From Naegleria gruberi (Eukaryota), in NCBI GenBank assembly GCA_000004985.1, contig GG738921.1: 64,000 bases of DNA. One strand, given 5' to 3'. Below are positions 11,989 to 35,965 of the stretch, piece after piece (the stretch's first letter is position 1; each line of letters opens with the position of its first letter). Under the pieces are notes generated by a model, which made no database searches, was not told the DNA's origin, and was given only the letters and a program-made list of their open reading frames with translations. The translations under genes and the position numbers were made by a program.

Positions 11989-13740
11989 ATGATGGATTCA
12001 ACAACGCCGTTGTCTTCATCACCAACCCCAAAAACTACAACAAAACAGGAAAATGGCGGGAAGACGATACAAAAAACTGCCAGCAAGATAAACTGCCTGA
12101 GTCCTCTGAGTCCAACCTCACCAGCAGCAACAGCAAACGGTTCTTCATCCTTTATGAATGAGGGAGTGGATGGTGATTCGGTCTCATCGACTGGTTCTGG
12201 AGGTTCATCATCTAAGAGAAAAAAGCACAAATTTCAAGCGAGGGATTATTGTTTGGTTTTTGAAGAGGCTATCAAGGATGTAGAGTGCATGGATATATTT
12301 AAATCATTTCTGAAGAATTGTTCATCGGAGGAGATGCTTGAATTTATACAAGAATATGATAGATATGAAAAAGTGTACAAATTGAAAAAGTTGAGTTATT
12401 TTGTAAGCCCCTTGCGAAGAAGATCAATTACTTCTGGTGGGAGTGCTACTAGTGGAGAGAGTTATCATTCAAATGTGACGACAACAGCCAGTTGTGTGAG
12501 TAATGTGAGTGATTTGTCGGTTGACTGGAATCAACTCAAGCAAGGTGTGGTAGAATTGAAAGAGAGTGCTTTGAGTATTATTGATACGTTTGTTTCGAAA
12601 GGATCGAAAAAAGAGATTAACATTGGATCGTTACAGAAACAATCTTTGGAAAGGTTTGAAGAAATTAACAAGCAAATATTGACGGTAGATTTAAAATCAA
12701 CAACCAGCTCGTCACAAGGGTTAGAGACCTTGTTGAATGTATTGGATTTGTTGAATCCATCGATTTTGTTTGATGGAATGGCATTGGCTATTTCTACAGA
12801 TTTAAAGTTTGATCAATTCCCTAGATTTGTGAGAAGTGATGCTCTTTTCAAGTTTTTACAAAAGAAGGGAGAAAAGTATACGAGATCGATAGCCATCAAC
12901 ATTTCGCAAGGTTACGAGATTGATATTCGTTTCAAACCAAGCGATTTGGAGGATAGGATTATTGATGACAAGCTCATCTATTTCGGATTTACAGTAATGC
13001 AGGATACACCAGATTGGGAGTTTGTCAAAGTTACTGACCTCTATCAATTACAATTGTCAAAAACAACTTACTTCTTCGATAATGACAAGAAAGAAAGTGG
13101 TCTAAAATTGCACAAGACGGTTGCCATCTTCCCATTCCCATTACAAGATGTTTGGAATATGGTGTGTAATCCTGAAAATCACTTCAAGTTTGATCCAAAA
13201 GGAAATGAAGATTTCAAAGTTAGAGACTATTTTCCTCCAAATGATCCTATTATGAAGAATCCGTATGCATTGACAGAAATTGAAACAGAACCGAAATTTG
13301 GCCCATTCATGAAGAGAAGACACTTGCCATTCATTTTGTCTACATTCTATGATCATGGATTGCAAGGTTACATTGTTATCTGCAGAAGTTTTAACGATGA
13401 ACCAAATTATCCTGACAGAATTCACTATGAGGGATTTAATTATTCCATTTATTTACCTATTGATGACTACCACTGTAGAGCAATCTTCATTGACTATACA
13501 GATATCAAGTTACCCTTCTCAAATGGAACACTATTTGAAAAGGCTACTTACAAGATTTATTCTGGAGCTAAGATTAAGGGAATGCTAAAAGTAATGAAAG
13601 ATTTGTCTCAAGATGGAAAGAAGAGAATTGAAATGGTTGGAAATGATGAAAGAAATTGGAACAAATCTGTAGAATTACACAAAGAACTTTATCCAGAGAG
13701 ATCATGGTACAATGAATGGCAACGATTGAAAAAGTTCTAG
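11989..13740 (+). CDS. RGS-domain protein with a C-terminal START-like lipid-binding domain.
   Basis: ATG at 11989 lies inside ORF 11926..13740. There is a Ser/Thr-rich N-terminus. The RGS-like segment is ARDYCLVFEEAIKDVECMDIFKSFLKNCSSEEMLEFIQEYDRYEKVY. The C-terminal about 250 aa has a START-like pattern and is paralogous to the gene at 29396-31188. Confidence 0.6.
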   Translation: MMDSTTPLSSSPTPKTTTKQENGGKTIQKTASKINCLSPLSPTSPAATANGSSSFMNEGVDGDSVSSTGSGGSSSKRKKHKFQARDYCLVFEEAIKDVECMDIFKSFLKNCSSEEMLEFIQEYDRYEKVYKLKKLSYFVSPLRRRSITSGGSATSGESYHSNVTTTASCVSNVSDLSVDWNQLKQGVVELKESALSIIDTFVSKGSKKEINIGSLQKQSLERFEEINKQILTVDLKSTTSSSQGLETLLNVLDLLNPSILFDGMALAISTDLKFDQFPRFVRSDALFKFLQKKGEKYTRSIAINISQGYEIDIRFKPSDLEDRIIDDKLIYFGFTVMQDTPDWEFVKVTDLYQLQLSKTTYFFDNDKKESGLKLHKTVAIFPFPLQDVWNMVCNPENHFKFDPKGNEDFKVRDYFPPNDPIMKNPYALTEIETEPKFGPFMKRRHLPFILSTFYDHGLQGYIVICRSFNDEPNYPDRIHYEGFNYSIYLPIDDYHCRAIFIDYTDIKLPFSNGTLFEKATYKIYSGAKIKGMLKVMKDLSQDGKKRIEMVGNDERNWNKSVELHKELYPERSWYNEWQRLKKF

Positions 13741-14260
13741 TCTAGACTAGATAATGATCAACAACCTTGACCTAAATCCAATCACGGAAAAACTCAATGA
13801 GAATGGGCTATCCAAATCCAGATTTGGCCAAATGATTCGAAATGCATTATCTTATCCCTGCTATCCAGAGTTATATTCTACCCACTACCAAAACTAATTT
13901 CCCATTCTCCTACGCAACCAATAGACCTTAATAAATGTTAAAAACAATTTTGCACCTCCTCTTCCTTGTTGTACATTGGAAAGTATTCGAATATATTTTA
14001 CAAAATATCAATAGTACATTCTATTCGCTGTTTCGGCTGTTTCGTAATCTCTCATTTATTAAAAAAGGTGCGTCTTTCAATAATGGAGTTATTAATTTCA
14101 ACTAAATCAACCAGACGAAACAATAAGAAAGCAATTATGAATAATACCCAATGAAAGTCCAAGGCAGGATTTTAGATGGTACGCACTTCATTGGGAGTTT
14201 TCAAAAAACTATTAAAAGATCTTTGTGCATTCTCCAGATTTCCAATATTCAAAAAAAAGA

Positions 14261-16462
14261 ATGAAATTGAAAAGAAACAAGAAGGAAAGTGATTCTAATG
14301 AAATCAAGGACGAAAGGGAGCCAAATATTAGGTTCGCCATGTGGTTTATTGTGAGAATAATGGGATGGGAAATGATTTGGATTGTATTGGGAATGATTGG
14401 ATGGGCTGCGCTTGGTTCCATTCCGGTAAGTATTCGAATGTTGAATTTTATTCGAAAGCTTAACACCTATTATATAGCATGGTAAGTTTGCTAAATGTGA
14501 ATTGCAATTTTTCTAATTACAATGAAAATAGTATTCAATATTTTAATGGGTGAATTAATTAAGGCTGTTTTCTCATCGACAACTGCCAAAACAAGTTATA
14601 CGAATGAAATTAATAATTTAGCCATGTGGATGGCCATTATTGCAGTTATTGCAGCTATTGTCATGTGGATGGGTTTTTCAATGACAAGTTATGCATTTGT
14701 AAGTTTCTTTCGAATAAGCTCAATTCTAAACTTTCTAAATTAGGAAAGAATTGGTGTAAGATTCAAGACAGCTTATATTGAATCCCTTTTAAAACAAGAA
14801 ACTGGTTACTTTGATATGAAAAGAACTGGTGAACTCATGTCTTGGATGACCGAATCAATGGAACAAATTCAAGACAGTTTCAGTAACAAACTCGGAAGAA
14901 TCGTCCAGTTTAGTATCCAAATCATTTTGGGTGTCATCTTGGCCCTTGTCTTTGCCTGGAAAATGGCCATCGCCATGGTTGCCTTCTCTCCATTAATTGC
15001 AGTCTTAATGTTTGCCTCAGGATTCGCCTCACAACTCGTCACTAGAAGAACCATGAAAATTTCCAATGAAGGATCTGCAATGGCCAACGAAGTTATTGGA
15101 GCTATTCGTACTGTTCGTTCTATGGATGCTGAACAAAAGGAAATTGACAGATATAAGAGACAAATGAGATCAGGAAATGCCATGTATGTCATTAAGGGAA
15201 TTGTTTTGGGATCTCCAATTGGTTTTTCTGAAATTTGCATTTGGGGAATTTTAGCATTTGGAATGTAAGTTGAATTTTAATAGAATTTGAGAAATTTTAA
15301 CATGTATTAGGTGGTGGGGAGGTAAATTATTACAAGATGGTGAAATTGAATTCCAAAACATGTTCAGAGTTTTCACATTGCTCTTAATGTCAGTTTTGGG
15401 TAGCTCACAAATTATGAGTTTCCTTCCAGATTTGACACGTGCCATTGCTGCCAGTAAGAATCTCTTAAAGGTCATTCACAGAAAACCAGCCATGAGATTT
15501 GGAGGTGGAATTACCCCAGAAAAAATTGAAGGAAAGATTGAATTTAAGGATGTTTGTTTTTCATATCCAACTCGTCCAAATATTCAGGTTTTGAAGAACT
15601 TTACTTTCAATATCAAACCTGGTCAATCAATTGCTTTAGTTGGTAGTTCAGGATCTGGTAAATCAACCATTGTTAGTTTATTGGAAAGATTTTATGAACC
15701 ATCGAGCGGTAATATTATTTTGGATGGAAATGAATTGGCTGAAATTGATCCACATTGGCTTCGTAGTCATATTGGATTGGTTGGACAAGAACCTGTATTG
15801 GTAAGTTTTTTTATGAACTTTCGAATATTTATATTGTGAAATAGTTTGGTGGTACTATTAAGGAAAATATTTGTTATGCTATTAGAAAGACTTCTATTGA
15901 TCCGTTCCCAAGTGATGAAGAAATTATCAATGCTGCTAAAGCTGCCAACGCTCACGATTTCATTTCCTCTCTTCCAGATGGTTACAATACCAAATTAGGA
16001 GAACGTGGTGTTTCCTTATCCGGTGGCCAAAAACAACGTATAGCCATAGCCAGAGCTGTCATCCAAAATCCTGAAATTCTACTTTTGGACGAAGCCACCT
16101 CTGCCCTGGACACAAACTCTGAAGCTGTAGTCCAAGATGCCCTCAACAAACTCATGAAAGGAAGAACAACCATTGTCATTGCCCACAGATTGTCCACCAT
16201 TGTCGATTCAGACATGATTCTCGTTTTCCATAAGGGTGAATTGAAAGAAGTTGGTACTCATGATCAATTGATGGATTTAGAAGGAGGTCTCTATGCAGAA
16301 TTGGCCAGAAAACAAATGATGAGAAAGGAAGAAAGTTTGGATAAAATACCATCAGTTCCATCCGCCATTGATATGTATAAGGAAGATGAGATTGAGATGC
16401 AACCATTAGAAAAGATTCCAAGTACTGATTCGGCTGATTCGAATGAAGATTCTATGGTTTAA
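14261..16462 (+). CDS. ABCB-family half transporter (TMD-NBD), 5-6 exons: 14261..14425, candidate micro-exon 14478..14481, 14532..14698, 14744..15264, 15311..15800, 15845..16462.
   Basis: Exons are joined by GTAAGT..AG introns of 45-52 bp. The TMD has the ABC-membrane pattern. The NBD carries Walker A (GSSGSGKST), the signature (LSGGQKQR) and Walker B ([12 protein letters not shown]). The reading frame is only maintained if CATG (14478-14481) is spliced in. Confidence 0.85.
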
Positions 16463-16617
16463 TTTCGTAATTTATTAGAAATGTTGAAAGTTTTGTTATG
16501 AACCAATTTTGTAAAGTGTTGTGCTTAGTATTTGAAAATATTAACACAAGAGGGTAAAGAACTTATTNNNNNNNNNNNNNNNNNNNNNNNNNNNNNNNNN
16601 NNNNNNNNNNNNNNNNN

Positions 16618-18629
16618 GTTTCTTTCACTCTTTCGAATATGTCAATCATATCATTCATGCAGTGAAGTTGAATTTTTCTGAAGAATGGCAAAAGATCAGC
16701 ATNTGAATCAATTAACCCTTGTAATTCATCATAAATTTCGTCCAATTTAGGATGATTCAACTCAAGAGGTGATCCTTTCGTTAAATAGGTTTTCTGAATG
16801 TGGATTGCAATCTTCTTTCTGTTTTTTGGTTTCGTCCTGGTGATCCTTTCCACATCCTTGTAGCAGAGAATCGGTTCTGGACAATAAGACCTTCTGGCAA
16901 AGTCCAATATTATCGTAAAGGTCTTCTTATTGGCCAAACATTGTTCCAATCCAGAATCTTGATTCCAATCCACATGTTTCTTATCCGATAACCAAGCATA
17001 CACTATTGGCAATGTTATACTAATCACCACATCCGAAATACTGTAAAACAGCAACACATTTCCATAAGGAATGAAAAAATCCAAAAATTTTGAAAATACT
17101 GGAATAAAACCAAACGCCACAAATATCACAATACTCAATAATTTCAATAACACCAAAACGAGTGTTTCCTTTCTCATATTCCACGTATCTCTATCTGCAA
17201 TTATACACAAAATAATGAGAATTACCTCAACAACAATGTAGAAAAATGTTTCAACTCCAACCAATATAAAAGTTGAATTGGTAATGCCACATCCTCTCTC
17301 CACAGTGAATAATCCACCATCATTAGTAAAGATGGTCGTTCCCTTTCTCAATTTCTGATCCCATTCAATTCCACCCATTATGAGAAATAGAATAACATGA
17401 AGTGAAAAGATAATGAAATAGCACAGTACAATAAAGAGGTTGCTCACGAAAAAGTTTAACACCTTTGCTCGTTTCATTTCCTTTTCAAAATCTTCCCTAG
17501 CTACAGAAAACCCATCACTGTATGTGTATGATTTGACATCGTCATCTGCCATTGAATATTCAGTAACATCAAAATCCACCATTTTGACAGACCGATCAAC
17601 GTCTTTTAAGGAGAAGTTACTAGCTGATTTCTTTTTAAGAAATGCCCTAGGGGAAGTGTTGCTACTTTCATTTCTTGTTAATGCTACTGAACTATCTATT
17701 GAAATATTCGAAACTGGACTAGTTGCTCCACTCGATTCATTCATAACTCCATTCGACTGCACATCTGCATTATTTTGAAACGCCTCCACAATGGTTGTAT
17801 TTGTCGATGTATTTGTTGTTGTATTATTACTAGACTTGCCATTTCCTTTTTTAGTTATCTTATGAGCTAAAGATTCCAAATTCGTTGTCGATTTTCCAAC
17901 CGTTCCACCAATCAACATTTTCATCTTTCTCAAATTCAACAAGTGTAGCAATACCAATCGATAACATCTAAAAATTGCTGGAAGAATCAACGAAGGAGGC
18001 AAGACGAAATAGGTCACCGAATAAATAAAACATGGATATTCTCTCCTACCAATTGCATATCTCAGGGAGGTCGAATAGATAATGAATGCACTTGCGAATA
18101 GTGTAAGAAACATGTAGACTAAACCTCTGGATTGAATGTGTCGAGAGTTTCGTTTCCAATACAAGCCGAAACATGTCAGAATGAAGAGAATGGAATAGAA
18201 AAACATGATTGCAATGGAAAACGAAACTGAAAGCCAAGTTTCTGGACAAATCCCATAAATTACTGTTGCATTAGGTCCGTATCGACTAAAATCGCCCAAA
18301 TTTAGAAGAATCGTATAACATCCATTGAGTGGATCTACAGTTGAATTAGTACTCGAGTTATTGAGTTGTTGTGAAGAGGATGATGAATTATCTAAATAGT
18401 TGTCAGCTTGATGTCGGGTATTATGTACTATAGAATAGTATTCTTTCGAATCGAATATACGAATCAATGAATTCATTTGAAAATTATCCTCTTCGATTGA
18501 CTGCGATGGAATTAATGTTTGATGACTGCAAATGCCGAATACTAGCAGTAGCACTGACAATTTTACAGCAATTTCCCTCAGCCGTTTGAAAGTCTGCTGC
18601 TGGCATTTGACAGGTTTAATTGCTGGCAT
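16618..18629 (-). CDS. Seven-TM receptor-like protein with a C-terminal RGS-like domain. The 3' end is truncated by the assembly gap.
   Basis: ORF 16563..18629(-) has about 7 hydrophobic helices and a Ser/Thr/Asn-rich loop. It is followed by LEQCLANKKTFTIILDFARRSYCPEPILCYKDVERI, an RGS N-terminal consensus. The ORF runs into the N-gap 16568-16617. Confidence 0.55.
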
Positions 18630-19038
18630 TTTTTTTAAGTGATCCTTTCATGCGTTTTTGTTTGTGTGCTTACAGCTGACATCAAACCTCGTTTGTCAGG
18701 TTTTTGGCCAATTTAGAAATTCAAATAGGCTCCCCAAAGGGAATGGTTCTTTATATTTCATCTTAATACTTTGCATCACCAATAATTCCACCTCCACAAG
18801 ACTATTCTCTACATGTGCATTAAACAATTTTAAAGAATGCCTCGTTGAAAAGGAAAATTATTGGAGGAGATAACTTCTACTACAGAGAAGATTTCTTATA
18901 GCGCAGTGTAAGGTTGAGAAGAAAGCCAGTTTGTTTAATGTACGTGGAGTTCGTTATTAACAAACTACACACATTAAGCAATGCACATCTGTTTCAATTT
19001 CTTTGTGGTTAAATTGATATCAATTAATTCGTATTTAT

Positions 19039-19815
19039 TTACATGTGAGAGTTGGATTTGATTCGTTTGATTTCAATGACTGGCTTTGGAACAATAGTTT
19101 GAATGGTGGCAGCTCTACCTCTTGTTGTTGTTGTTGAATTAAATTCGTATGAGAAGGCAGAAAATGAAAGTCTCTTCTTACTAGTAGTATGGAAAGAAGT
19201 GGATTTGAAATCTTGATTGGTGGCAGATTGTTGTGGAGGTGGAGTATTCAAAAGCTCGAATTGAGGAACTAACAGAGTTTGTGAATTGGAGCTCACAGCT
19301 GGGAATGTAAAGTTGCCAAGAGGAGAAATTGGTGGAGTAATTTGATGGAATCTTGTGTTGGTAGTGTGGACAATTGACTTGGAAGGACTCTTTTTGAGTT
19401 TTGGAATCGATGGCTCTACTTCTTGTTGTACCGAAATAATTGGAATGGTCAAGTGAAGATTGGAAGCTTGTTTCATCAGGATTGGTTGAAGTTTTGAAGA
19501 GGAAGCAACCTTTGATATTGGAGAGATGGAAATGGATTTGGTTCTGACGAGAATTGGTTTTGGTAAGGCAGCAACACCCTTAGAAGAAGCAACAGCAGGA
19601 ATGCCAACACTCTGATTGTCCCTCTCATATAAATTATGTAAATCAAGTATATTCTCATGCATTAAAAAGTATCCATTCAAATCCAGCACACAACCTTCAT
19701 ACGATTGTTCAGCCAACATCACAACACATGTCCACACGGAGACCAATAAACCTTTGAGTAATTGCCAGAGTGCGCTATAGCCGATTAAACTAGTTGAGTA
19801 AGAAGTGGAAGTCAT
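19039..19815 (-). CDS. Hypothetical Ser/Thr/Pro-rich protein with an N-terminal hydrophobic segment.
   Basis: 258-aa ORF. No recognisable domain. Confidence 0.35.
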   Translation of the reverse strand: MTSTSYSTSLIGYSALWQLLKGLLVSVWTCVVMLAEQSYEGCVLDLNGYFLMHENILDLHNLYERDNQSVGIPAVASSKGVAALPKPILVRTKSISISPISKVASSSKLQPILMKQASNLHLTIPIISVQQEVEPSIPKLKKSPSKSIVHTTNTRFHQITPPISPLGNFTFPAVSSNSQTLLVPQFELLNTPPPQQSATNQDFKSTSFHTTSKKRLSFSAFSYEFNSTTTTRGRAATIQTIVPKPVIEIKRIKSNSHM

Positions 19816-20463
19816 TCTTTATAGACAACAAAATAATTGTTCTTATTGTTTTTCTTGTTGTTGTTGATTTTTTTTTCTGTTATTGTCATCCAACTTGCGT
19901 TTGACTCTCTTTATGTTGGTTATGTGTTGGAGGAGGAGCTTGAGATGTGTAATGTCTTACTAGAGTTAAATCGTTATAAAAAAACAGAATAAGGACAAAA
20001 GAAAAATAAATTACATGCAAAGAATGATTCAGCAACTTATTTGGAATTTATTTTATGTTGTTATTGCTCAGCTTGATGTTGATAATTTCGGAATGGAAAT
20101 TTAATACTCAATAAGGATTTAAAAATGCATATATCTCCAAAGTAAATTGCACCAAGATAAAATCGACTAATTGAATACTGTATTATTGTGTCCATCTCGT
20201 TCCTTGAACAATTAATATTAATTTGTTCCACAAGAGGTGCTTTTTAGTTGAATCTTGAGAGATAATTTTAATCTCAAATTTCAAGAAGTTCTCCTGCTCC
20301 ATTGGAAGTGAATTAAGACACTCTCATAATTTTTACAAATGCTCCACAGATTCTCATTGTATTAAATGATTTCCCAATCATCATATTCTTCATCAAATAT
20401 CCCAATCACCCGATAATTAATTTATTTTGTTATTAAATTTAAGTATTTTTAATTTTATAAAAA

Positions 20464-21763
20464 ATGAACTCGCTTAGCCTTAATCTTACTTTGCATTGCG
20501 GAAGAGATCTTCCAAAGGTAAGAAGAAATTTCATCACAATTTGATTTTTTAATGTTTTAAAATTCTCTATTGATTTGTTTACCATATGATGATGTTGTTG
20601 TTATTAATTGCATTGAATTTATGATCATCATTTAGGCCGATTTGTTATCTTCGATTGATGCCTATGCTGTTGTTATTGTTCCGATTATTGGAGGACAAAC
20701 CAAAACATTTAAAACAAAATGTGTGCAAGATGACCCAAATCCTGATTGGGAATTTGATTTGTTCTGTACAGATGTGGATGGAACCAGAGATTGTCTTGTT
20801 GAAATTTGGGATGAAGATACTTTGAGAAATGAAAAGGTTTGCACTGCCATACTTTCTCTTGTTGAGTTGAAATCATCAGGCACATGGCTTGGAAAGCATA
20901 TAGTCTTGAAATGCTTATCTGGATTCAAACCATTCAAGGGAGCTAAAGAGTGCTGTATTATCGTATCAGCAAGTGCTCACATTTCTTTTGCTGACCTCAC
21001 TCGCAAAATCACATCTCCAAACAAGTATGTGGATCCATCAAAAAAGACTATTGTCTTCCCTTTCTCACCTCATGGTGACAATACTCAACTCTATATTAAA
21101 ATTTCAGCTGGAAAGAGATTCAAGATTTCGGTTTTGGACACTTCAGAATTTAGAACAAGACTTGTCATGTTTGAAGTTGCTGGAAAGAATATCACTTCTC
21201 AAATTATCAAACTCAAAGAACCAAAGAAAAAGTATGGAATTAGCTATTATAGAAAGATTAAGATGAAGAAGGCTGACATTAAATCATGGACAAGCGTCAA
21301 TCTTTTGGTTTCTAATTGTTCACTAGTTGCAACAAAGGGTGTGGAAGCTATTGTAAATGAACATGGCTGGTATGGATCCATGACCTTTGATCAAGCTAAA
21401 AAGACTTTGAAAAATATTATTGTGGATGAGGAATCTAAGAGTATTTTCATGCTGGAAAACAACTTTAGCTATATGGTGGACTTTGATTCAGACAACTTTG
21501 ACCAAAAGGTTTGTCTCTCTGATGAATACTCAGCTCAAGGATATCATGTCGAGTTTGTATATGCAAAGGGAAATAGATTGAGTATCACTTCACATGGAGA
21601 ACCAAGAGTTCAAACCAATACAAGAGTAGTATATAGATATTCTTCACAAGTGAAAGACTCTGAATACGGCACTCCATTCTTCCAATTCAGTGTTGAACTC
21701 TATCACAAGATACAACCACAACTTTACCAACTCAACAGCTATATTCCTTTAAGTTTGAATTAA
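20464..21763 (+). CDS. C2-domain protein. Exons 20464..20517 and 20636..21763; intron GTAAGA..TTTAG.
   Basis: Exon 1 (MNSLSLNLTLHCGRDLPK) joins in frame to ADLLSSIDAYAVVIVPIIGGQTKTFKTKCVQDDPNPDWEFDLF (C2 beta-sandwich pattern). The C-terminal half has a weak SH2-like start (WYGSMTFDQAKKTL) but lacks the conserved Arg. Confidence 0.6.
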
Positions 21764-24270
21764 ACTTTATTTTGTTGATCTATGAAAAACCTGCTCTTTA
21801 CACATGTATTGGAACATTCAAGCAAGATAGATTGTGTCGAAGGAGTAATCAAGGAAAGGAAATAATCATAATCACTCCTTAGTTCTTCAGATGCGAATGC
21901 AAAATTGAGAGCTGAGGATGAAACAGCCATTCTAACAATATCCTTATCATTTCTTAATCTATTAGATGCGAAAGCTAAAGATGTTGAATCTGAACTGACT
22001 GCCAATTTGACAATTTCTTCTGTATCTCTTATTCTATCAGATGCATACTTTAGCAGCGAACCACTATTCTTCAAAATGAGAAGCATAAACTTTGTGTCAT
22101 CATTTAAATTCAATAACAATTTCTCAATAATATGGCTATCAATACTTTCATGAAACCGTAAAATAGAGGCAATAATTGACTGTGATAGATTTTGTGGATC
22201 TACATGTGCAAAAATTCTACCATGACGTCCACAAGAGGTTAAAATTGTATCCAGTAAATCTTCATCCTCATAATTGAGCATTTCAAAAGAAAAATTGTCG
22301 TATGGGTAGAAAACACCAGAATATATCTTGATGATATTCACGTGACTTGAATTAAAGTAGGCAAGGGATGCTTCTTGTAGCCGTTTCACAAAGGGAAGGT
22401 AAATCTCTCCCATATTGCAAAAAAAGTAATTCGTACCCTTAACTGATTTGGAGCATGGATCCATGCAATAGAGAGCATATTCACCATAATAATCCAATAA
22501 TTTTTCATTGAAATGATCTCCATAGATGGAAATAAAGTATTCTCTATCAAAAAATAGCATTGGATGAGCATATTGCAATGAGGGTTTCTTTTGTGATGGT
22601 GGCCTGAGCTGTTGATGAAGTAAGACAAGCTCGGTCTTGAATTCATCCTTTCCAAAAGAACGACAAATAATCATCTCATAAACTTTTTCCTCTCTAAATC
22701 CTTGTTTCAATGCCATATTTACACATTCCTTAATTATTTCAATGTTTCCCCTTAATGATCTCGAAAAATTTGCAAATGAGAGAGCATTTCTGCTTGTGGC
22801 AAATCTCATAAATTCTGAATTGTTCTTTAAATTATCAGAAGCAAACTCTATTATTCTCCAATCAATATCATACATCTGTTTGACAAATTCAAAGTCATCT
22901 CTCAATTCCAAAGTAGCACACTTAAAAAATGTATAGCTCCTTCTCACCAACAGTTCAATAAGATGATGATTAGATCTTAATTCTTTAGGAAATTGCATTG
23001 CCGTTTTTAAATCAAATGCTGGTAGAATTGATTTGATGAATTCTGCATTCTTCCTTATTGAATCACCAAATAAATTCAATATACTTCCATTTTTAGATAA
23101 AAGTTCTTTAGCAACAGAAATGGAATTACGAATCTCTTTCGATACAAACTCAATCAATTCGTGTTCCCTCTTCAATATTGGTAGTATCAAATCTAAATTG
23201 CTCCTCAATCTCTCAGATGCATATTTGAGGGCTTTTGGGTAGAGTCTTGTGACAATTTGTAAAATCTCCTCGTCATCTACCTCAAAGGATCCATCAAAAA
23301 CATTTTTCAATACACCTAAATCATCTTTGGCATACCTGACTACTTCCTTGATGGTGAAAAATCGTTTTGGAATGAAAGAGGGTGGCAATAGCTCCTTCTC
23401 AACTACCATTCTCCAAAATTCTTCTCCTTGTGGTTGGTAGAGTTGTGAAAATTGCTTGTTGTTATCCTTGTTCATTACCAATTTGAGAGCTAGCTCTGAA
23501 TATATCTCCTTTTTAATCCATTTACATACGTTCAACTCTCCATTCTCCAGTGCAGTGCCTACTATCTCTGGGTCTGCTTTAAATTTTGAATTTGAATATC
23601 TGAGCACTGATCCGTAATATTTTACAGCTTGTAACACCAATTCCCTATTCGACTTGATTTCTTTTGCCTTCTTTTTCAATTCTGTATCATTTCTCAATTT
23701 TTCACACGTCACATATTTGAATATTCTTGTAGTAAACCTAAACAATCCAACAATTCCCAACTCATCCTCATCAGAAAAATCAATTTTTCTCCTCACTTTC
23801 TGCAAATCATTTCCACACTCAGATAAATCCAAAGCAGCTTCCAATAATTCTCTATCAGATCGTAACTCTTTACTGGCAGAACGAAAGCAAACCTGATGCT
23901 CCTTCACCACACTCATCATAAACTGCCTATCACTCGTCAATTGCTGTGATGCATATCTAATCAACCACCCTCTCAACATGATCAATTTCTTCATAAATCC
24001 AAAATCATTATTTTCAATCAATGGAAATCTTTTCACAAAACATCTCACCGAATAATTATCCTCACACTTTTTCAAACATTCAATATATTCCATCTTTTTT
24101 TTAAATAATGCTAATTGATCAATTAATCGGAATTTTCGTAATTTGTGGAAATTAATATTGTGTGAGTAGAGGTTGGAATTCTTGCATGGTTCCGAGAGGT
24201 CATCGAGTAGAATAATAACTGGTTCTCGCCATGATGATGATGGTACCATCATTGGCATGGTTGTGTCCAT
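21760..24270 (-). CDS. DUF4116-like repeat protein (about 20 tandem degenerate repeats of the form LRxDxExVxxAV....).
   Basis: 836-aa uninterrupted ORF with repeats such as LRSDRELLEAAL, LRNDTELKKKA, LRSNLDLILPIL, LRDDFEFVKQMY, LRNDKDIVRMAVSSS. Its stop codon overlaps the stop of the convergent C2 gene. Confidence 0.5.
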   Translation of the reverse strand: MDTTMPMMVPSSSWREPVIILLDDLSEPCKNSNLYSHNINFHKLRKFRLIDQLALFKKKMEYIECLKKCEDNYSVRCFVKRFPLIENNDFGFMKKLIMLRGWLIRYASQQLTSDRQFMMSVVKEHQVCFRSASKELRSDRELLEAALDLSECGNDLQKVRRKIDFSDEDELGIVGLFRFTTRIFKYVTCEKLRNDTELKKKAKEIKSNRELVLQAVKYYGSVLRYSNSKFKADPEIVGTALENGELNVCKWIKKEIYSELALKLVMNKDNNKQFSQLYQPQGEEFWRMVVEKELLPPSFIPKRFFTIKEVVRYAKDDLGVLKNVFDGSFEVDDEEILQIVTRLYPKALKYASERLRSNLDLILPILKREHELIEFVSKEIRNSISVAKELLSKNGSILNLFGDSIRKNAEFIKSILPAFDLKTAMQFPKELRSNHHLIELLVRRSYTFFKCATLELRDDFEFVKQMYDIDWRIIEFASDNLKNNSEFMRFATSRNALSFANFSRSLRGNIEIIKECVNMALKQGFREEKVYEMIICRSFGKDEFKTELVLLHQQLRPPSQKKPSLQYAHPMLFFDREYFISIYGDHFNEKLLDYYGEYALYCMDPCSKSVKGTNYFFCNMGEIYLPFVKRLQEASLAYFNSSHVNIIKIYSGVFYPYDNFSFEMLNYEDEDLLDTILTSCGRHGRIFAHVDPQNLSQSIIASILRFHESIDSHIIEKLLLNLNDDTKFMLLILKNSGSLLKYASDRIRDTEEIVKLAVSSDSTSLAFASNRLRNDKDIVRMAVSSSALNFAFASEELRSDYDYFLSLITPSTQSILLECSNTCVKSRFFIDQQNKV

Positions 24271-24434
24271 CTCTTGCTTTATTTTTTTTAAAATTCTGTT
24301 TACAAAGAATTATTTAATGAAATAATCCACTTCCAAGTACCCAAATGTTCATGACATATATAATAATGATGATGACAGGTTTAAAGTTCCCCAAAATTAT
24401 TTCCATGAACATTTGAGTACTTGGAAGTGGATTC

Positions 24435-25522
24435 TCATCTTTGCATTTCAGTACTGTGTGAAATACAAGTATAGCCAGTGAGTATCATTATTTTAATTGG
24501 ATCGATAGTTCTATTCCATTCCAATAAGATACTCTCCTGAAAAACTTTAGTTTCATTTAGTCTCTTTAGGGCGCTTGTTTTAACAATGGATGCATTTTGT
24601 AATCGATGTAAAATGATTAGATTTTCAATGGATTTCTGTGCATTTTCAATGGAAATCTCAATTTCACCTCTTTTTAAATCAATCTTGTTGATTACGAAAA
24701 CTATCGAAAAAGAGTTTCGTTTTTTAAAACGAATTATATCACAAAGAATCTTGTTTAAACTTTGGACTGAATCCTTTTGATCCAAGCTACAAACAAGCAC
24801 GAAACACGACTGTTCCGTACACATTTTCCTAACTTCTTCTTCTCTTTTTTCCTTTTCGTCTTGCACTTCATAATAATCTTTTTCCATTATTAGAATGTTA
24901 AAATTACATTCAAATTATATTTTCGTACCTAGTTCTTTAACTCTAATAGTCAATTCTACACCATCAATCTCTAATTTTATCCTCCTTGAAGACAATATCT
25001 TCCTATTAGGCGATCTATCAAATAATCCATCAGCAACTCGCCTCACAATACACCTCTTTCCAACATTGTCAATTCCCAAAAGAAGAGCAAACATTTCCTT
25101 TTCTGGTTTGGATTTCATCCTTAATTTTCTCTTCATGCACGAAATTAAAACTTTTCTTCGCATTGAAACCTTTGGATTGGAAAGAATTTTGTAAATTGCT
25201 TCAAACTCATGATGGTGTTGTCTGAAATAGAGTGTATCCTTCATTTCCTTTTTCTGTTTCAAATTCTGTACATCTTTCCAGGTTTCCATGTCCAATTCCT
25301 TGTCCACATCACATTCATATCTAAACAATTTAAATTTCATCATGAAATAATTCCACCAAAACTCATCAAAATAATCATCAAGATCCTGCATATGCATTGC
25401 ATATTAAACATATCCCAATGATACCCAAGAATATCCAAATCATCATCTTGATCATTCCTAATAAACTTCATTATCAAGAGAAGAATTTCTGGAGGTAAGG
25501 AAGTAAAAAGTTCTCGTTTCAT
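24435..25522 (-). CDS. F-box-like N-terminus plus a divergent (possibly inactive) Ras-superfamily GTPase-like domain. Multi-exon; internal structure uncertain.
   Basis: Exon 25340..25522 has LPPEILLLIMKFI (F-box-like). Later exons carry a P-loop-like GIDNVGKR, then NKID (G4) and TSALK (G5), but no DxxGQ (G3). One 51-bp GTACGA..AAAAAG intron is found at about 24888-24938. A frame discontinuity near 25340-25397 is unresolved. Confidence 0.45.
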
Positions 25523-25712
25523 TTTTTTTTAGAAAAGTTCATCGGGTTTGAGGCATTTAAAAAAAATGAGGTACAAACTTTGATTTATATATAGCTCAAT
25601 ATAAATTATTAAAATTCAAAAATTGAGAATATTGTATAATGGTATGCCTAGGTTACAATTTGAAACAATGAGTGACTCAATTGTTATGATGATTAAAAAT
25701 TAATGTTATGAC

Positions 25713-26099
25713 TGCGTCGACCGGGAATTGAAATTCCTTTTTAGGAATATTATATTTAATATTTAAATAGTTTACAATATTGAATAATGAACAACGTGTA
25801 AATGTGTTGAAGTAGGGTACCCGTGAGTCGATTCACCATATTTGGAAAGGTACCATTCAAGAACAACAACAATAAATGTATTTAATATTAATTATTTGAT
25901 ACCGGGAGTCGCTTTTCCTTTTTGGGAATGTTGTATGTGTGTTATAAACTGGTCGACGCATTTAAAATTTTTTAATTTTTTTAAAAAAATGAAATTGGGT
26001 AACGGGAGACGGTTTACTATATATGGAACATTCAAACATACAATTGAACCCGGGTCACGGCGATGGCAACGCCGTATTCTACCACTAAACCATCGACGC
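25713..26099 (-). pseudogene. tRNA-Gly-GCC: tRNA-Gly (GCC) gene interrupted in the T-arm by a 309-bp insertion.
   Basis: The minus strand 26099->26042 reads GCGTCGATGGTTTAGTGGTAGAATACGGCGTTGCCATCGCCGTGACCCGGGTTCAATT. This covers the acceptor, A box, anticodon loop TTGCCAT and 5' T-stem plus loop. Unrelated sequence occupies 26041->25733. TTCAATT then appears again (25732-25726), followed by CCCGGTCGACGCA (25725-25713), the 3' T-stem plus acceptor that pairs with GCGTCGA. Confidence 0.8.
25733..26041 (-). mobile_element. 309-bp insertion inside the tRNA-Gly(GCC) gene, flanked by a 7-bp direct duplication TTCAATT. It contains two degenerate internal repeats carrying tRNA-end-like motifs.
   Basis: Target-site-duplication-like repeat of the T-loop. 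Internal motifs ATTCC(C/T)AAAAAGGAA x2 and GAATG.TCC...CG.CTC.CG.TACCC x2. Additional tRNA-like fragments GCGTCGACCAG.. and ..GCGACTCCCGG.. are present. Confidence 0.55.
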
Positions 26100-26325
26100 T
26101 TCACGTTCATTTGGAATGAAATGAACATCTCAAGAACAATAATTGCTTATATTTTAATACTGGATTTTTGTGAAACAATTAATCCATGAATGTGCAAAGT
26201 TTAACCGACCAATGCTACTTTGTGCCTCGAATGTACTTCCAAATTCAAATGGTCCTGCCTCAAAAGATGCTTCCAAATTAAGCAACGGGACACAGTAGTA
26301 ACTTTTGATTACGTAACAAAACAAA

Positions 26326-27059
26326 ATGCCTCACGATCCTACTCGTCTTCAACATTTAATCAAAAACTATTACAAGTCAGACTTGGAAAAGATTCACAAG
26401 AATTATGAAAGAATTTGTGATAGATACAATTTGGAAAAGAAGGATTTTCTGAATGATGTCTCTCTGTACAATCATTGTGATTTACTGAGCGTTTCCAATA
26501 TTTATTCAACCATCAGGAACGAATCATTAAAGATTATTCCAGTAGACTATGTGGAAACCTTCAAGAAGAGAAAGAGAAATCAAAACACCACCACTTTAGG
26601 TGAAGACTCTGACGAAACAGAAGCAAAATCTGCCAAAACATCATCCGACAAGACCTGTGCTCACTGTGGTGGCTCCGAATTCATCTTTGTTTGTAATGGT
26701 AACAGTGATGGCATGTATTTGGAGTTTCCAAATGGTAGAACAGTCTCTGGACAAACTCCACAGCTGACAGCATTAACAGATGGTGATGGAGTTTCTCTCC
26801 ATGTTTGTGTTGGTAAGTTTTCTTCTTCATCACTGGAATGTAATATTGTTATTATTATTTGATGAAAATTCGTGATGATATCTTATGATGATGATTAAAA
26901 GGATGTGGAATGGTTCATGGATTCAACTCTACCCAACTCAAGAGAGATTTGGAAAGGTACGAATTTGCTCTGGAAGATATGAACGAAGCTGATCAAGATG
27001 AATTACTCTTCGAAGAGGATGACAACAACAACAGCAAGAATAAACTTTCACCATGTTGA
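26326..27059 (+). CDS. Hypothetical protein with a C-terminal CxxC..CxxC zinc-ribbon. Exons 26326..26812 and 26902..27059; intron GTAAGT..TTAAAAG.
   Basis: Splicing joins ..CAHCGGSEFIFVC..LHVCVG to CGMVHGFNSTQLKRDLERYEF..* in frame. The tail is acidic. Confidence 0.6.
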
Positions 27060-27268
27060 AGGAAAACAGACTTTACATAATTCACACTTGTTCATTGTAT
27101 CATTCCCCACTTCAACACCTTGAAGATAAATCTGTTGAATGTACCTGAAGGAAAATATCAACGTGTAATTCGTTAAAGAATATTTTATTTTTTTTCTAAA
27201 TTTTTAAAAAAAATCATCAACATTCGTAACGGTAACTTTTGTGGTTCCTGAAAGATTGGTCTTCAATT

Positions 27269-29159
27269 TTATTTACTATTCACCAAGACAGGACTAAAGT
27301 TACCCTTGAAAGAAACAATGAGTACAAAGGCAATAATCAAAAATACAAAATCTGTCCACAAAATAATTGATGGAGCTAGAGGAGTACACAATTGCAACAC
27401 ATTAATATAAACCATGAAGAGAATACTCCACAAAGTAGTCAATGTACTTGAAATGGTCATGGTCGTAGATGGATGAACTGGATAGGTCGTATAGACAATC
27501 ATTTGATTCAACAATGGCATTGTAGGTACTGAAAACATTCCGATCAATACAAAGGACATTCCAGACAAGACTAACAAGACATCATTCTTCTGCCACAACA
27601 TTAATATACAGAACCATAGGAAGGCTAAACAAGCAGAGGCACTGGTAATGATTGTGATGAGTTTGAATTGTTTGGTCTTATCAAAGAGGATACTCAACAC
27701 GATGGAGGAAATTGTAGCAAAGACAATCAAGATAATATTCAAATTACCAGAATCAATGGCTGTATACTTGTTACCCTTGATGATTTGTTCCAAAATATAG
27801 ATGGATTGGAAGAAGGAATTGATGAGTGTGGAAGCAGCTAATAACATGAAGAAGGATGGTAATCGGATCAACTTTTTCAAACCAAAGACAAATGTTTGAG
27901 GAGGATAAACATCTTTTGGTTCTTCTTGTTTTGTCTTGGATTGTTTGGTTTCAGCTGCTGATGTTTCAAGGTCTTGATTGGATAATGGTTCTTCAGCAGT
28001 GTTGGAACCTTCAGTTAGAGATTGTGTGAGGTCACCATTAAAGCCAGGATTGGATTCTTCTTTGGTTGGTTCTGGAGCTATAGCAGGTGGTGTAGGTGGC
28101 TTACTCTTAAAGAAGAGCAAAACAAGAAAAACACACAAGGTTGCCATTACTCCTTGAATTCCCAAAAAGATGCCAAGGCCCAAATCTGAAATCTTTAAAT
28201 CCTCTTCACTTTCACTTCCAATGGTCATGAGACGAGGTCCAACAAGATAGGACAAGAGACTTCCGAATACACCTGAGAACAAGACAACAACCTGCACAAC
28301 TGTTCTCTCCTTATTTCCAAACCAAAAGACTCCAAACAAGTCACCACATTGAGTAATGAATGGTTGTCCACATGCAATGAAGATTTGTCCAATTAATGAA
28401 AGCCAAAATGAAGTTTCATTTCCCTATTATCATTCAAATTGTGGAGGTTGAATATGTGTAAAAAGGATATGTGAAATGTATGAAAACTTACTTGAATACC
28501 AATTAATCTAATCCATGCACCAATACATGTCAGTATAGAATATATAGAAACACTCCATTTTAAACCAAATCGTTTCAGAACGAATGAAACTAGAAAAGTA
28601 ATTGGAATAGTTGCAATTAAAAAGACCAAAGAAGTCATATTAATCTTCCAATTAGCATCAAGGCGGTAAAACTTCATCAATAGAGTTCTAATAGCATGGA
28701 CAATTTCATTAGGACACCACAAATTACTTTTGTTACTAGTACTCACCCTGAAGTTGTATAGGTCGACATGCAAATAATAGAAGTGACCATACATAATGCA
28801 AATATTGCTAATTGAAACCATCTTCTAATGTATAATTTAGGTTCTTGAGTTTGTTCTTGTTGTTGATGTTGACTCGGAAGAGGGGAGGACAAAATCTCTT
28901 CCTGTTGTTGTTCATCTTGTGCCTGCAAGCTACCATTATTAAGGGATGGATAGGAACCATCAAGCTCCTCTTTATATTGCAGAGTTTGATGAGGTTGCCT
29001 TCTCTCATCAAGGAGTTGTTCCCCGACATCTACTTCATATTGGTGATCTTTCATCATGCGACACTGCTGAATGGTGTAGTGAACTCTTTTTTTAAATAGT
29101 GAAATCATTTGTTGCTGGATCATCATTCTATCTCTCTTTGGATGTTTGTGCGCAGTCAT
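27269..29159 (-). CDS. MFS transporter of the FLVCR/MFSD7-like type. Multi-exon, with an apparent frameshift or unresolved junction near 28760-28821.
   Basis: Exons in ORFs 28743..29159, 28393..28821 and 27269..28339. FLVCR-like TM1-3 pattern: RRWFQLAIFALCMVTS.., ..SNLWCPNEIVHAIRTLLMKFYRLDANWKINMTSLVFLIATIPITFLVSF..CIGAWIRLIG. A GTAAGT intron follows IGIQ at about 28455. Confidence 0.65.
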
Positions 29160-29395
29160 GATGATGTTGAGTTCTTCTTTGGGTGTGTGAATTGTTTATT
29201 AAGGAAGATTAAGGGGTTAGATTCTGCTTGAGGAGGAAGAGGATGAGGGTTTATTCAACTTTCCAATTATCATGGTTGGATGGGGGTGGTAGCGAGAAGG
29301 AAAAGGAATTATGATAGATCAAACAAAGCAGATATGTCCCATGTATGTTATCATGTTAAGATAAAGATGCATAATGGTGATGAAGATAACATTGT

Positions 29396-31188
29396 TCATC
29401 TCAGATAAATATCACCATTCTTTTTGAATAGCTGATAGAGGTAGGCATCTCTTTGAGGAATTGGAAAACCATTCCTTTCATTCTCCTTCAAGTATTTGAG
29501 TCCAAGCTTGTAGAATTTACTGGCTCGGTTGGTAATGACCTTGTCCATCATTAATTTTGGAATGGATCCTTTCATGTCAATATAGTAAATCTCATGGAAT
29601 TTAGTTTCATTTTCCGAGAGGGATTCAAAGAACCAACCGCCCACTACACATGCCTTAATGATTTTCTTTTTGGATTTCTCTTGTTTTTCATTGTGTAATT
29701 GGTGCTCTGGATTTTCTTCCAAACACAACGAGTCACAACTCTTGAATCCTATAATGTACAGATTGCTCACTCGATCGTGTACTGAGCTGGTGCAGACAAT
29801 GATTTCTCGATCCTTGATTGGCCAAATGAGTTTGTACTTTTCATGATTTATGACTGATGTGAAGAGTTTGTCCTTTGTTTGAATGTGAGGCTCTTCAACA
29901 TATTTCACCGTTTGAATATCATAAATGTACTCATCTATCTTTTGTCTATATTCTTGATTGGTAAAAGTTTTCAAAACTTGTTTTACATTGTAAGGAAAGA
30001 GAATTTCAAATTTGAAAAATTTCAATCCAACACTATTTCCAAAATCATACTTGTCTTTTGTAAAGTAGCACTTGTATTGTTTCTGATTGACTGCCAAAAT
30101 CCATTCTCTATTGTTGATAGTTTCTCCACAAAACACTTTTCTTTTAAGGAAGGCAAAATCACCAAGTGAAAAGTTTTGATTTTTCAAATCGGCCATTGAT
30201 TCAACAGCCATATACTCTATACCTTCTTTGAGGGTCCCAATTTCATGTAGAATATCAATGGTCTTGCCACTTTTTATCAAGTAATTATGAAACAAGTCAC
30301 TTTTCAAAAAACCATGGAAATAATTCAACTTGAGTGATTCGTGAATAAACATTTCAACCTTTCTAAACAAGTTTTCTGGATTATCGGCATGCTCTTGGAA
30401 ACACTTTTTGAATGAATTGATGGTTTTCTCTTTCAAAGTGTGTGGTAAATTGATTCTTTAGGTGAAATATTGCAAATGAAAGTTTCAATAATGCTATTGG
30501 CAATTTTCTCAACCTTTTCGAATTTTTCCATTGTTACAAAAGAGCTAGACATCCGATCGTAATTTTTGTCTGAAATGTTGTGTGGAATCATTACACCGTT
30601 GTGAGCTATTTCATCACTGTCAATGACATCTAGAAATGTCATTGAAATTCCATCATGTGACAGCTCATCCTCATGGGATTCAACAGATGAAAGAGAAACA
30701 TTGGAAATTACAGAAGAGGAAGTATTCTTTCCTTCAATCAGTGAAGGGGGATTGAAACTAGAGGGAGTGGACGAAACCAAATACTGTTTACATATAAATC
30801 TGTAATGTTTGGCGCTTTCCAAGAATTCTACAGCTTCTTCCATCTTTTTAGTTAGTAGAAACTGCTTAAATATCGAATAGATTTGTTTGTGAGTGATAAC
30901 TGCTTCGTAGCTGTAATGGAAATTCGAAAGATCTTGTTCATCAATCACTTTACTATTCGAATGTTGTTTTGATGAGGAAGATGCTGAAGATATATCATCT
31001 CTGGAATGCTCAATCTCATATCCCTCGTCTATATCAAGTAAATGTTGAGTGGAAAAGAATTTTCCTGGTAAATGTGAAGTTTGGCTGATAGTTGTGGACA
31101 TTGAAGACATGGGTAAAAGATCAAGGTGTGATGGTTCACTGTTGCTCTTGAAGGCAGAAGTGTGATGCATGGTTTGACTTGATGGCAT
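29396..31188 (-). CDS. Second RGS plus START-like domain protein, paralogous to the gene at 11989-13740. Apparent 1-nt frameshift at about 30433-30440.
   Basis: ORF 30433..31188 has an RGS-like segment (YEAVITHKQIYSIFKQFLLTKKMEEAVEFLESAKHYRF). ORF 29396..30436 has a START-like region (..REIIVCTSSVHDRVSNLYIIGFKS..GGWFFESLSENETKFHEIYYIDMKGSIPKLMMDKVITNRASKFYKLGLKYL). The two ORFs overlap by 4 nt in different frames. There is no room for an intron. Confidence 0.55.
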
Positions 31189-31395: not shown

Positions 31396-32355
31396 TAATT
31401 TTTTATTTTTGTCCATTTTCCATCGACCTTTTCACGAGTCTTTGATGTATTTTTCATCCTTCAAGTTTGCTCCTTAATTATTAGTACATTTATGAGAAAT
31501 GAATATTTAAATTGATTTTAAATTGTAAAAAAATATTTCTAATAATTTCTTCTTGATTGTTCTCGTCTAATAATCCTTGACCAAGAATTCTTTCCATCTA
31601 TTTGCAAACCTAAATTCATTCTATCATGTAATATTGCTCTATTTCATTGTACTTATTCAAGAAGTTTCACTCATTTCAGGCATTAGGAAGATTTCTAATA
31701 TCAATGGCAATATTATATTGTTTCGAACCCTTTTTGGCTAATTCATCAACATGTCCTTTTACCTTTTCCAATTTAATTTCCAAATATTGTTCTATCAAAT
31801 TCATCTTTAAAAATTGAAAATTTCCCATCATATCTTGGATTTAGAAATAACATAATGAAGGAGAAAGCAAAAAGAAAAAACTTGTGGCAGAGAAACGATA
31901 ACTATGGACTTGGAACATTGCAATCACGATTTGGTTGTAAATCTATTCATTCAAACATCCTGCTTCCTCTTATTCCTCTTCTGCTTCCTCTTCTCTATTG
32001 TATCCAAATGGATGACAAGTTTTTCTACTCATTAAGGCAAGACAACAATTTACAACATATTCATAGTAAGGCTTTCCATCTACATGGGTTAGTTTGGGTT
32101 GATAGTAGGCTCTTTGTATTGTGCTTCCTGAACTTGTAAGTGATTGAAATGTATTTTTGAAAACATAGAATGATTCTGTGTGGAAATCAGAATTTGCAAA
32201 TATTGCTTTAACTTTGATTGATTCCAATTCGTTTTCTTTGTCATTGTAATCAAATGAAGATAGATATAGGTATATTGATGAGTTTTCTCTAAAATCCTTA
32301 ACCTCTGTTAATTATCGCGTAGAGAAATACAGTGTTTGTAACTAATTTCATAAAA

Positions 32356-33264: not shown

Positions 33265-33275
33265 TACTGCAATAA

Positions 33276-35523: not shown

Positions 35524-35965
35524 TTTTTTTTTTGATTTGACAGGAAATCTTTGTTAAACTGGAATGAAATTGTAATATCTAAATAATTTAAATATTAAAT
35601 TATTTAATATTTAAATATTTCAATTTTACATGATACAATTGAGGGATCTGATCTATTCTTAAATTCATCCTCAAAATATTTGTTTTGAATGAAATTTGAA
35701 AATGTCAACAAATAATTGGTTGTTTGACCTACAACAAATTAAGGATGATATGATGATAAATAACAATGATGATGGTTGGTAGTTGTTCCGATGGTGATGT
35801 ACCAACTTGAATTTTTTCCTAATAATAAAATAATTTCCAAATCATGATGAAGGATTAATTCCAAAAATTGCAATTATTACTATTATTTAAATGATGATGA
35901 GATGATGTGGTGAAATTCTTGGAGTTAATAGATGTGAAACTACTCCAAGAATCAACAGAGTCGTG

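Follow-up and report, generated by a model that had tools for sequence, protein, structure and literature searches.

Related systems and overview of the window

The closest described counterparts of the genes considered here are proteins in which a GTPase-activating, enzymatic or RGS-homology domain is joined to a lipid-binding module, and seven-helix membrane proteins that end in an RGS box. The genes lie in a window of DNA (by which we mean the whole stretch analysed, 64,000 nucleotides (nt) long) from a draft assembly of the amoeboflagellate Naegleria gruberi (Heterolobosea), and comprise two RGS-START genes, gene 1 (11989-13740) and gene 3 (29396-31188), and between them a gene (16618-18629) for an apparent seven-transmembrane (7TM) protein with an RGS-like tail. 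We consider it quite probable that the window is an ordinary piece of N. gruberi chromosome that carries three members of the very large RGS repertoire of the genus, two of the RGS-START and one of the 7TM-RGS kind. An earlier sequence-only reading of this DNA had proposed all three RGS genes, and each was found where that reading had placed it or very close by; the order that it claimed for the first and last of them, RGS then START, also holds in both (by Pfam, with the START domain of gene 1 assigned by fold), while the organism is not the social amoeba that it had considered as a possibility. All three genes belong, as unremarkable members, to families that have expanded greatly, and their domain assignments are correct calls on families that are uncharacterised and already catalogued.

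The DLC1, DLC2 and DLC3 proteins (STARD12, STARD13 and STARD8) resemble the RGS-START proteins in having a GTPase-activating domain followed by a C-terminal START domain, and the START domain of STARD13 is among the top structural matches described below. These metazoan proteins, however, act on small GTPases through a RhoGAP domain and also contain a SAM domain, whereas the RGS box of the RGS-START proteins is of the kind directed at heterotrimeric Gα subunits; the resemblance is analogous, and a shared ancestry of the fusion is unsupported. ACOT11 (Them1) likewise has a START domain appended to an enzymatic domain, and ACOT11 START domains, one of them with bound myristic acid, are also among the structural matches. 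The ACOT11 START domain is a lipid sensor that tunes the adjacent enzyme, although its partner is a hotdog thioesterase of the animal lineage and not an RGS box. SNX13, SNX14 and SNX25 combine an RGS-homology domain with a lipid-binding module in one protein, and the SNX25 RGS domain is a weak match here, but in this opisthokont family the module is a phosphoinositide-binding PX domain rather than a START domain with a hydrophobic pocket. The best sequence matches of the gene 3 RGS box are to R4-class proteins (RGS16, RGS18, RGS8 and RGS4), which have in common with it the Asn of 'KE[IV]N' and an acidic pair; the R4-class proteins are, however, small single-domain GTPase-activating proteins (GAPs) of animals, whereas the window proteins have long low-complexity inserts and a START domain and do not have the 'SEEN' Asn.

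The sequence-only reading had placed the RGS-START combination outside the classic RGS families, which is correct for the classic animal RGS classes. A eukaryote-wide survey already lists START among the recurrent partner domains of RGS (PMC3971589), and the pairing is therefore not new to the literature. A literature search found nothing relevant on Naegleria RGS proteins with START or StAR-related lipid domains, in a scope that did not include the likeliest place for it (Anantharaman et al., 2011; Gene 475:63). For the 7TM gene the nearest described systems are Arabidopsis AtRGS1 and the Nf 7TM RGS1-4 proteins, in which a seven-helix membrane domain precedes a cytosolic C-terminal RGS box, as it appears to do here. 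The kind has 28 representatives in N. fowleri, whose 7TM-RGS boxes have been shown biochemically to act as GAPs on Naegleria Gα subunits (PMC9283941; Bosch et al., 2022).

Gene 3 and its frameshift

Gene 3 is split in the assembly into two open reading frames (ORFs), at 30433-31188 (251 amino acids, aa) and 29396-30436 (346 aa), whose phases lie one base apart. At the break the sequence reads 'cct aaa gaa/tca att tac', and an A added after 30454 gives NISPKEINLPHTLKEKTINSF. The repaired junction aligns without gaps, residue by residue, with human RGS16 (APKEVNIDHETRE / SEAPKEVNIDHETRE) and aligns also with the metagenomic homologue P0005 (51 % identical; HKELNLAYGTKEK / QAHKELNLAYGTKEK). Frame 2 opens only past a TAA at 30460-30458, and frame 1 ends at a TGA at 30435-30433. 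An intron was ruled out as the cause of the frame change, since the coding segments abut with nothing left between them, the peptide being continuous with RGS16 and P0005 with zero spare residues; programmed −1 frameshifting was judged unlikely, the site being without a slippery heptamer.

Two explanations then remain to be weighed, a base-calling error and a recent pseudogene in which the 1-nt deletion is genuine and the RGS-START protein is no longer made. The break is present in the assembly, and a collection of 5.8 billion proteins holds no intact version of the gene but only a chimeric model (P0004), as would be seen with a pseudogene. The flanking ORFs, however, are still 51 % identical to the intact homologue, and only one base is affected, within an A-run and in a draft assembly that has gaps and a stray N nearby, which is consistent with a base-calling or assembly error. 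Because both ORFs are otherwise free of stops, we favour a base-calling error in the A-run as the likely explanation and regard a recent pseudogene as rather unlikely.

With the single A restored, the RGS box of gene 3 is well above the Pfam gathering cutoff (GA; 23.9 bits for RGS PF00615 and 22 bits for START PF01852), whereas the two unrepaired ORFs, each taken alone, score 21.1 and 17.6 bits. The box is divided by an unusually long, low-complexity, Ser/Thr-rich insert of about 99 aa (30541-30792). Searches with phmmer match it to RGS16, RGS18, RGS8, RGS5 and RGS4, the best PDB sequence matches being to the R4-class GAPs RGS16, RGS18 and RGS8, with weak matches to the RGS domains of SNX25 and Axin as well; the Asn of 'KEINL' is present. 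The Pfam START match of gene 3 reaches the cutoff but is marginal (Table 1), that of the homologue P0005 being 27.9 bits.

Stretches of gene 3 match N. gruberi entries at 100 % identity. In the public model, P0004 (948 aa), which is chimeric, exons at 35445-32359, from an unrelated leucine-rich-looking gene upstream and across a gap of 788 Ns, are joined to 30433-29399; the model omits 30437-31188, and hence the N-terminal half of the gene 3 RGS box, and keeps the START half. We note that in a metagenomic homologue of gene 3 (L001:1-240) the first RGS helices ('KKKMEE/AIEF') are interrupted by a GT...AG intron about 42 nt long, at a point where gene 3 of the window has none.

Gene 1 and a START domain invisible to Pfam

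The product of gene 1 is 100 % identical to an NCBI entry, 'predicted protein [Naegleria gruberi]', and the public model, P0001, begins at the second Met (11992). Full-identity matches of this kind, for all or part of each of the three genes, establish the organism as N. gruberi. Its Pfam RGS match, above the cutoff, extends from residue 112 to residue 306 of the ORF and over profile positions 2-113 of 117. That 195 residues are needed to cover a 117-position model is due to a Ser/Thr-rich insert of about 67 aa (12400-12560), which interrupts the box after its first helices; in P0002, a close paralogue of gene 1, the insert is 61 aa long. The long inserts in the RGS boxes of genes 1 and 3 could be phospho-regulatory loops. 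The Asn of 'KEINI' is conserved in gene 1.

The C-terminal 284 aa of gene 1 match no Pfam family, START included, even at E<=10, and a profile of this region gave no meaningful match to PDB sequences; PDB sequence matches of START-like profiles to tube initiator and glutaredoxin were discarded as spurious. Three lines of evidence identify the region as a START domain. A profile built from gene 1 and two relatives aligns with the START family of gene 3 over 203 columns (hhalign 79 %, E-value 1.6e-5). An AlphaFold2 model of the domain, made from a five-sequence alignment and of modest confidence (predicted local distance difference test score, pLDDT, 62.9; predicted TM-score, pTM, 0.73), has the helix-grip strand order and a long C-terminal helix, with several loops of low confidence. 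When this model was searched with Foldseek, the top 44 matches were all START-type lipid-transfer domains (best E-value 1.7e-8), among them STARD10, STARD4, STARD5, STARD13/DLC2, CERT, ACOT11, STARD3, the silkworm carotenoid-binding protein and a bacterial START protein. The 'START/Bet v1-like' fold that the sequence-only reading had seen in gene 1 can thus be narrowed to START proper, its modelled fold being closest to START structures of the StAR type. This assignment, for a subfamily (gene 1 and its relatives) that escapes Pfam START in its entirety, is a contribution of the present analysis.

The RGS-START family

A family profile of the START-like domain was searched against 1.84 billion representative proteins and found 206 representatives at E<=1e-3, of which 109 reach E<=1e-10, with the domain usually 150-500 residues from the N-terminus. 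Among the best 149 representatives, Pfam RGS is found in 96 and Pfam START in 44, and family-specific hidden Markov models (HMMs) place RGS N-terminal to START in 103 of the 106 members that have at least 150 aa upstream. Several of these proteins bear the UniProt label 'RGS domain-containing protein'. In a look-up of 20 sampled clusters, the 12 that are named are all heterolobosean (N. gruberi, N. fowleri, N. lovaniensis, Willaertia magna and Acrasis kona) and the remainder are metagenome contigs; on these sequences the family appears to be known so far only from Heterolobosea. The pathogen N. fowleri is among the organisms with RGS-START members (P0008).

Both gene 1 and gene 3 match the clade START profile in a six-frame hmmsearch of the window (E-values 7.9e-134 and 3.5e-100), the profile alignment itself including both genes. 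Family HMMs run on the six-frame translations of the window found no RGS or START-like ORF beyond the three genes. Between the products of genes 1 and 3 identity is only 23 %, and their sets of nearest relatives are disjoint; they are therefore not a recent local duplicate pair. To call them simply two paralogues, as had been done, overstates their kinship; judged by sequence, they are members of different, anciently diverged subfamilies of one family of more than 200 clusters.

Conservation across the RGS boxes of the family reaches 96 % at the Asn of 'KE[ILV]N[LIV]'; an acidic pair and a D..R motif are also largely retained. We take this Asn to be the equivalent of Asn128 of RGS4, and the Glu-Asn of the animal 'SEEN' motif to be RGS4 residues 87 and 88. 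Most members are without the insert seen in the window genes, the median gap being 13 aa as against 67 aa in gene 1 and 99 aa in gene 3.

A C-terminal BLUF blue-light sensor domain is present on 7 of the 149 representatives, which are thus RGS-START-BLUF proteins; examples, all outside the window, are P0138 (Acrasis kona), P0085 (Willaertia magna), P0111, P0112 (in a cluster with N. gruberi EFC49155) and P0101. These are candidate light-regulated Gα GAPs, and the literature search found no paper joining BLUF with RGS in Naegleria. The size of the family, the tight coupling of RGS to START, the restriction (so far) to heteroloboseans and the RGS-START-BLUF variants are additions of the present analysis.

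A probable 7TM-RGS protein

The gene at 16618-18629 very likely encodes a 7TM-RGS protein, to judge from its sequence and that of a homologue. A signal-like hydrophobic segment (residues 17-40) is followed by about 90 residues that contain Cys and Asn-X-Ser/Thr sites, and then by seven hydrophobic segments taken as transmembrane (TM), the third and fourth of which (TM3 and TM4) are joined by a low-complexity loop about 165 aa long. The same pattern of hydrophobic segments is repeated in the metagenomic homologue P0007 (49 % identical). The RGS-like region that follows TM7 is cut short by the N-gap at 16568-16617 and for this reason scores only 16.8 bits with Pfam RGS; in P0007, whose C-terminus is intact, the score is 25.0 bits. 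An RGS HMM made from the RGS-START family also matches the window protein (E-value 3.5e-7), and a two-sequence profile of the region finds RGS22 among PDB sequences (E-value 0.003), followed by weak matches to the RGS-homology domains of p115RhoGEF and GRK2 (E-value about 1). At the Asn128 equivalent the protein has the Asn of 'LELNH', and at the Asn88 equivalent a Pro. The seven-helix protein with an RGS-like end that the sequence-only reading described is thus borne out, with a signal-like segment in addition.

On this reading the gene belongs, unannotated, to the known 7TM-RGS kind represented by AtRGS1 and the N. fowleri proteins, from which it departs in several respects. The Nf 7TM RGS1-4 proteins have EGF, lectin or GPS ectodomains, whereas the ectodomain here is short and domain-free; the TM3-TM4 loop sets it apart from these and from AtRGS1; and the RGS box, besides being truncated by the gap, is divergent, with 'PEP' where, as we read the sequences, R4-class proteins such as RGS16 have 'EEN'. 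Unlike the known 7TM-RGS proteins, its public model carries no RGS annotation. The 3′ end of the gene is broken by a single N at 16703 as well as by the 50-N gap, and the public model, P0006 (NAEGRDRAFT_59832; 474 aa), ends after TM4 without TM5-7 or the RGS-like tail. Parts of the gene match N. gruberi entries at 100 % identity. Of the public N. gruberi models of the three genes two are wrong, one a chimera that hides an RGS-START gene and the other a truncation that hides an RGS box, and domain censuses built on such models will undercount. The corrected models of the two genes are a further contribution of the present analysis.

Proposed mechanism and its alternatives

From its sequence, the RGS box of the RGS-START proteins would be expected to bind activated Gα (one or more of the many Naegleria Gα subunits) and to speed GTP hydrolysis. 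The modelled START domain may bind a sterol or another hydrophobic lipid ligand, and by analogy with the RhoGAP-START protein DLC and the thioesterase-START protein ACOT11, the ligand-bound domain might place the GAP on a particular membrane or gate its activity. The 7TM protein, on the pattern of AtRGS1 and its N. fowleri counterparts, would have a cytosolic GAP for self-activating Gα subunits under the control of a signal from outside the cell or from the membrane. It is reasonable to infer that RGS-START proteins are putative lipid-regulated G-protein GAPs; dozens of RGS proteins per genome, each linked to START, would form a major and unstudied input layer of the G-protein pathway. A stronger version, which we put forward as a speculation and think unlikely to hold as it stands, is that RGS-START is a heterolobosean invention in which bound lipid or sterol directly switches the Gα GAP on or off, with blue light doing likewise in the RGS-START-BLUF proteins of Acrasis, Willaertia and N. 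gruberi. If this is true, these amoebae would possess a brake on self-activating G proteins that is gated by a metabolite or by light and needs no receptor.

Several observations weigh against these assignments. In place of the 'SEEN' Asn of animal RGS proteins the family has Ser, Pro or Ala, and the window genes have Met (gene 1) and Ala (gene 3) at this position; gene 3 also lacks the D..R motif of the RGS-START family. Gene 3 is frame-broken in the only available assembly and may therefore be non-functional. The RGS tail of the 7TM protein is truncated and under the Pfam cutoff, and an AlphaFold2 model of that protein, made from a two-sequence alignment, was unusable (pLDDT 36.8). No functional study of RGS-START proteins was found in the literature search.

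The first of these observations bears on the possibility that the RGS boxes serve the RGS-START proteins not as GAPs but as Gα effector or scaffold modules, comparable to those of Axin, the GRKs, the sorting nexins and the RGS-RhoGEFs, with lipid transfer by START as the main function. Loss of the Asn88-equivalent contact residue would be in keeping with such a role, as would the long disordered inserts that divide the box in genes 1 and 3 and the weak matches of gene 3 to SNX25 and Axin, but the Asn that stabilises the catalytic site, at the Asn128 equivalent, is retained almost throughout the family, and the best PDB matches are to R4-class GAPs. We therefore regard a non-GAP role as doubtful. 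Much the same may be said of the proposal that the C-terminal domain retains the START fold without binding lipid and is instead a protein-interaction or autoinhibitory module. The gene 1 domain has a sequence identity of just 7-15 % to START domains that have been characterised, it escapes Pfam START altogether and several loops of the model are poorly determined; the complete helix-grip topology and long C-terminal helix are nevertheless predicted, and the nearest structures are all lipid- or sterol-binding STARTs, clearly nearer than other Bet v1-like folds, so that a START domain without a ligand also seems improbable.

Proximity of the three RGS genes

The three RGS genes fall within 19.2 kb, with a receptor cyclase 9 kb upstream, and the sequence-only reading had seen in this a notable concentration of G-protein and cAMP signalling components. 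The genome of N. gruberi is about 41 Mb in size and that of N. fowleri about 30 Mb. A rough Poisson estimate, which assumes uniform placement and one RGS gene per about 200-400 kb with counts taken from N. fowleri, gives an expectation, per genome, of about 0.04-0.3 sets of three RGS genes as close as within 19 kb, so that the arrangement is mildly unexpected under uniform placement. In N. fowleri there are 28 7TM-RGS proteins, 79 other RGS proteins and 1 RGS-RhoGEF (about 108 RGS proteins) and 80 cyclases (PMC9283941), and each class therefore makes up roughly 1 % of the genes. Local duplication history may contribute to some extent to the proximity, and the density is unremarkable for families that have grown by duplication.

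Among and around the RGS genes are an ABC transporter, a C2-domain gene, a DUF4116-repeat gene, a divergent Ras-like GTPase and an MFS-like transporter, and the remainder of the window contains unrelated genes. Homologues on the metagenomic contigs L001 and L002 (38 % G+C) have no neighbouring genes in common with the window. The claimed concentration is accordingly weak, given the interleaved unrelated genes, the lack of synteny with L001 and L002 and the large size of the families, and the three genes most likely lie so near one another because genes of these kinds are so numerous, not because they form a functional cluster. That they form with the cyclase a functional, co-regulated G-protein/cAMP signalling island is very improbable: their spacing is somewhat closer than uniform placement at N. 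fowleri counts would give, but they lie on both strands amid the transporter, C2, DUF4116 and GTPase genes, the two RGS-START genes belong to different subfamilies, the homologues in a related organism (L001 and L002) keep none of the same neighbours, and RGS and cyclase genes are each so common in Naegleria. We conclude that there is no good evidence for a signalling island.

Other features of the window

The positions of the features described are collected in Table 1.

Table 1. Positions in the window of the RGS-START genes, the 7TM-RGS gene and the receptor cyclase, with their domains
Feature	Position	Strand	Evidence or remark
Receptor-type class III nucleotidyl cyclase	40..2756	+	Pfam Guanylate_cyc 61.6 bits, OpuAC 28.5 bits
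Gene 1, RGS-START protein	11989..13740	+	583 aa, single exon/ORF (ORF listing)
Gene 1 RGS domain	12259..12843	+	Pfam PF00615 31.8 bits (GA 23.9)
Gene 1 C-terminal START-fold domain	12889..13737	+	Invisible to Pfam; fold-based
7TM-RGS gene	16618..18629	-	3′ end lost to assembly gap 16568-16617
RGS-like C-terminal domain of 7TM gene, gap-truncated	16621..16955	-	Follows TM7; Pfam RGS 16.8 bits (GA 23.9)
Seven hydrophobic TM segments, residues 133-543	17001..18233	-	Kyte-Doolittle scan of window protein and homologue P0007
Gene 3, RGS-START protein	29396..31188	-	597 aa once 1-nt frameshift is repaired
Gene 3 START domain	29477..30109	-	Pfam PF01852: ORF alone 24.1 bits, repaired protein 22.0 bits (GA 22)
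Gene 3 RGS domain	30281..30912	-	N-part 30793-30912 and C-part 30281-30540; Pfam 48.5 bits after repair
Gene 3 frameshift site 'gaa/tca'	30453..30454	-	Single extra A restores SPKEINLPHTLKEK

The cyclase at the start of the window had been described as ACG-like. It is indeed of the receptor type, with a TM segment, an extracellular OpuAC-type (glycine-betaine-binding-protein-like) domain, a second TM segment and a class III cyclase domain, but the ACG comparison fails on the sensor, since Dictyostelium ACG has a CHASE-type sensor, and the window cyclase has the OpuAC-type domain in its stead. The gene spans two ORFs and has at least one intron, near 940, with an AG-ending junction.

Other genes of the window can be assigned in part. 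The ORFs at 48483-51056 (- strand) and 58147-60708 (+ strand) are a paralogous pair, 7 kb apart and on opposite strands, with near-identical Pfam profiles (DOMON, ferric-reductase TM, FAD- and NAD-binding domains), and appear as NOX/FRE-like oxidoreductases with an extracellular DOMON domain. A divergent small GTPase lies over two ORFs at 24435-25397 (- strand), of which the C-terminal one matches Pfam Ras (30.2 bits) and has an NKID motif and the upstream one has a P-loop-like 'GIDNVGKR'. The neighbouring 21760-24270 (- strand) encodes an 836-aa protein with at least seven DUF4116 repeats (198.6 bits). A large ORF at 35963-39358 (+ strand) contains three dynein-related AAA_5 domains (278.6 bits) and is possibly part of a midasin/Rea1-like AAA ATPase; the next ORF, 39533-41959 (+ strand), has no Pfam match and may be its continuation.

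The G+C content is about 35 % across the entire window, which contains five runs of Ns, among them 16568-16617 in the 7TM gene and 33276-34063 (788 Ns). A dip in G+C to 0.21 at 32001-34000 overlaps the latter and is probably an artefact of the gap, not a genuine AT-rich island.

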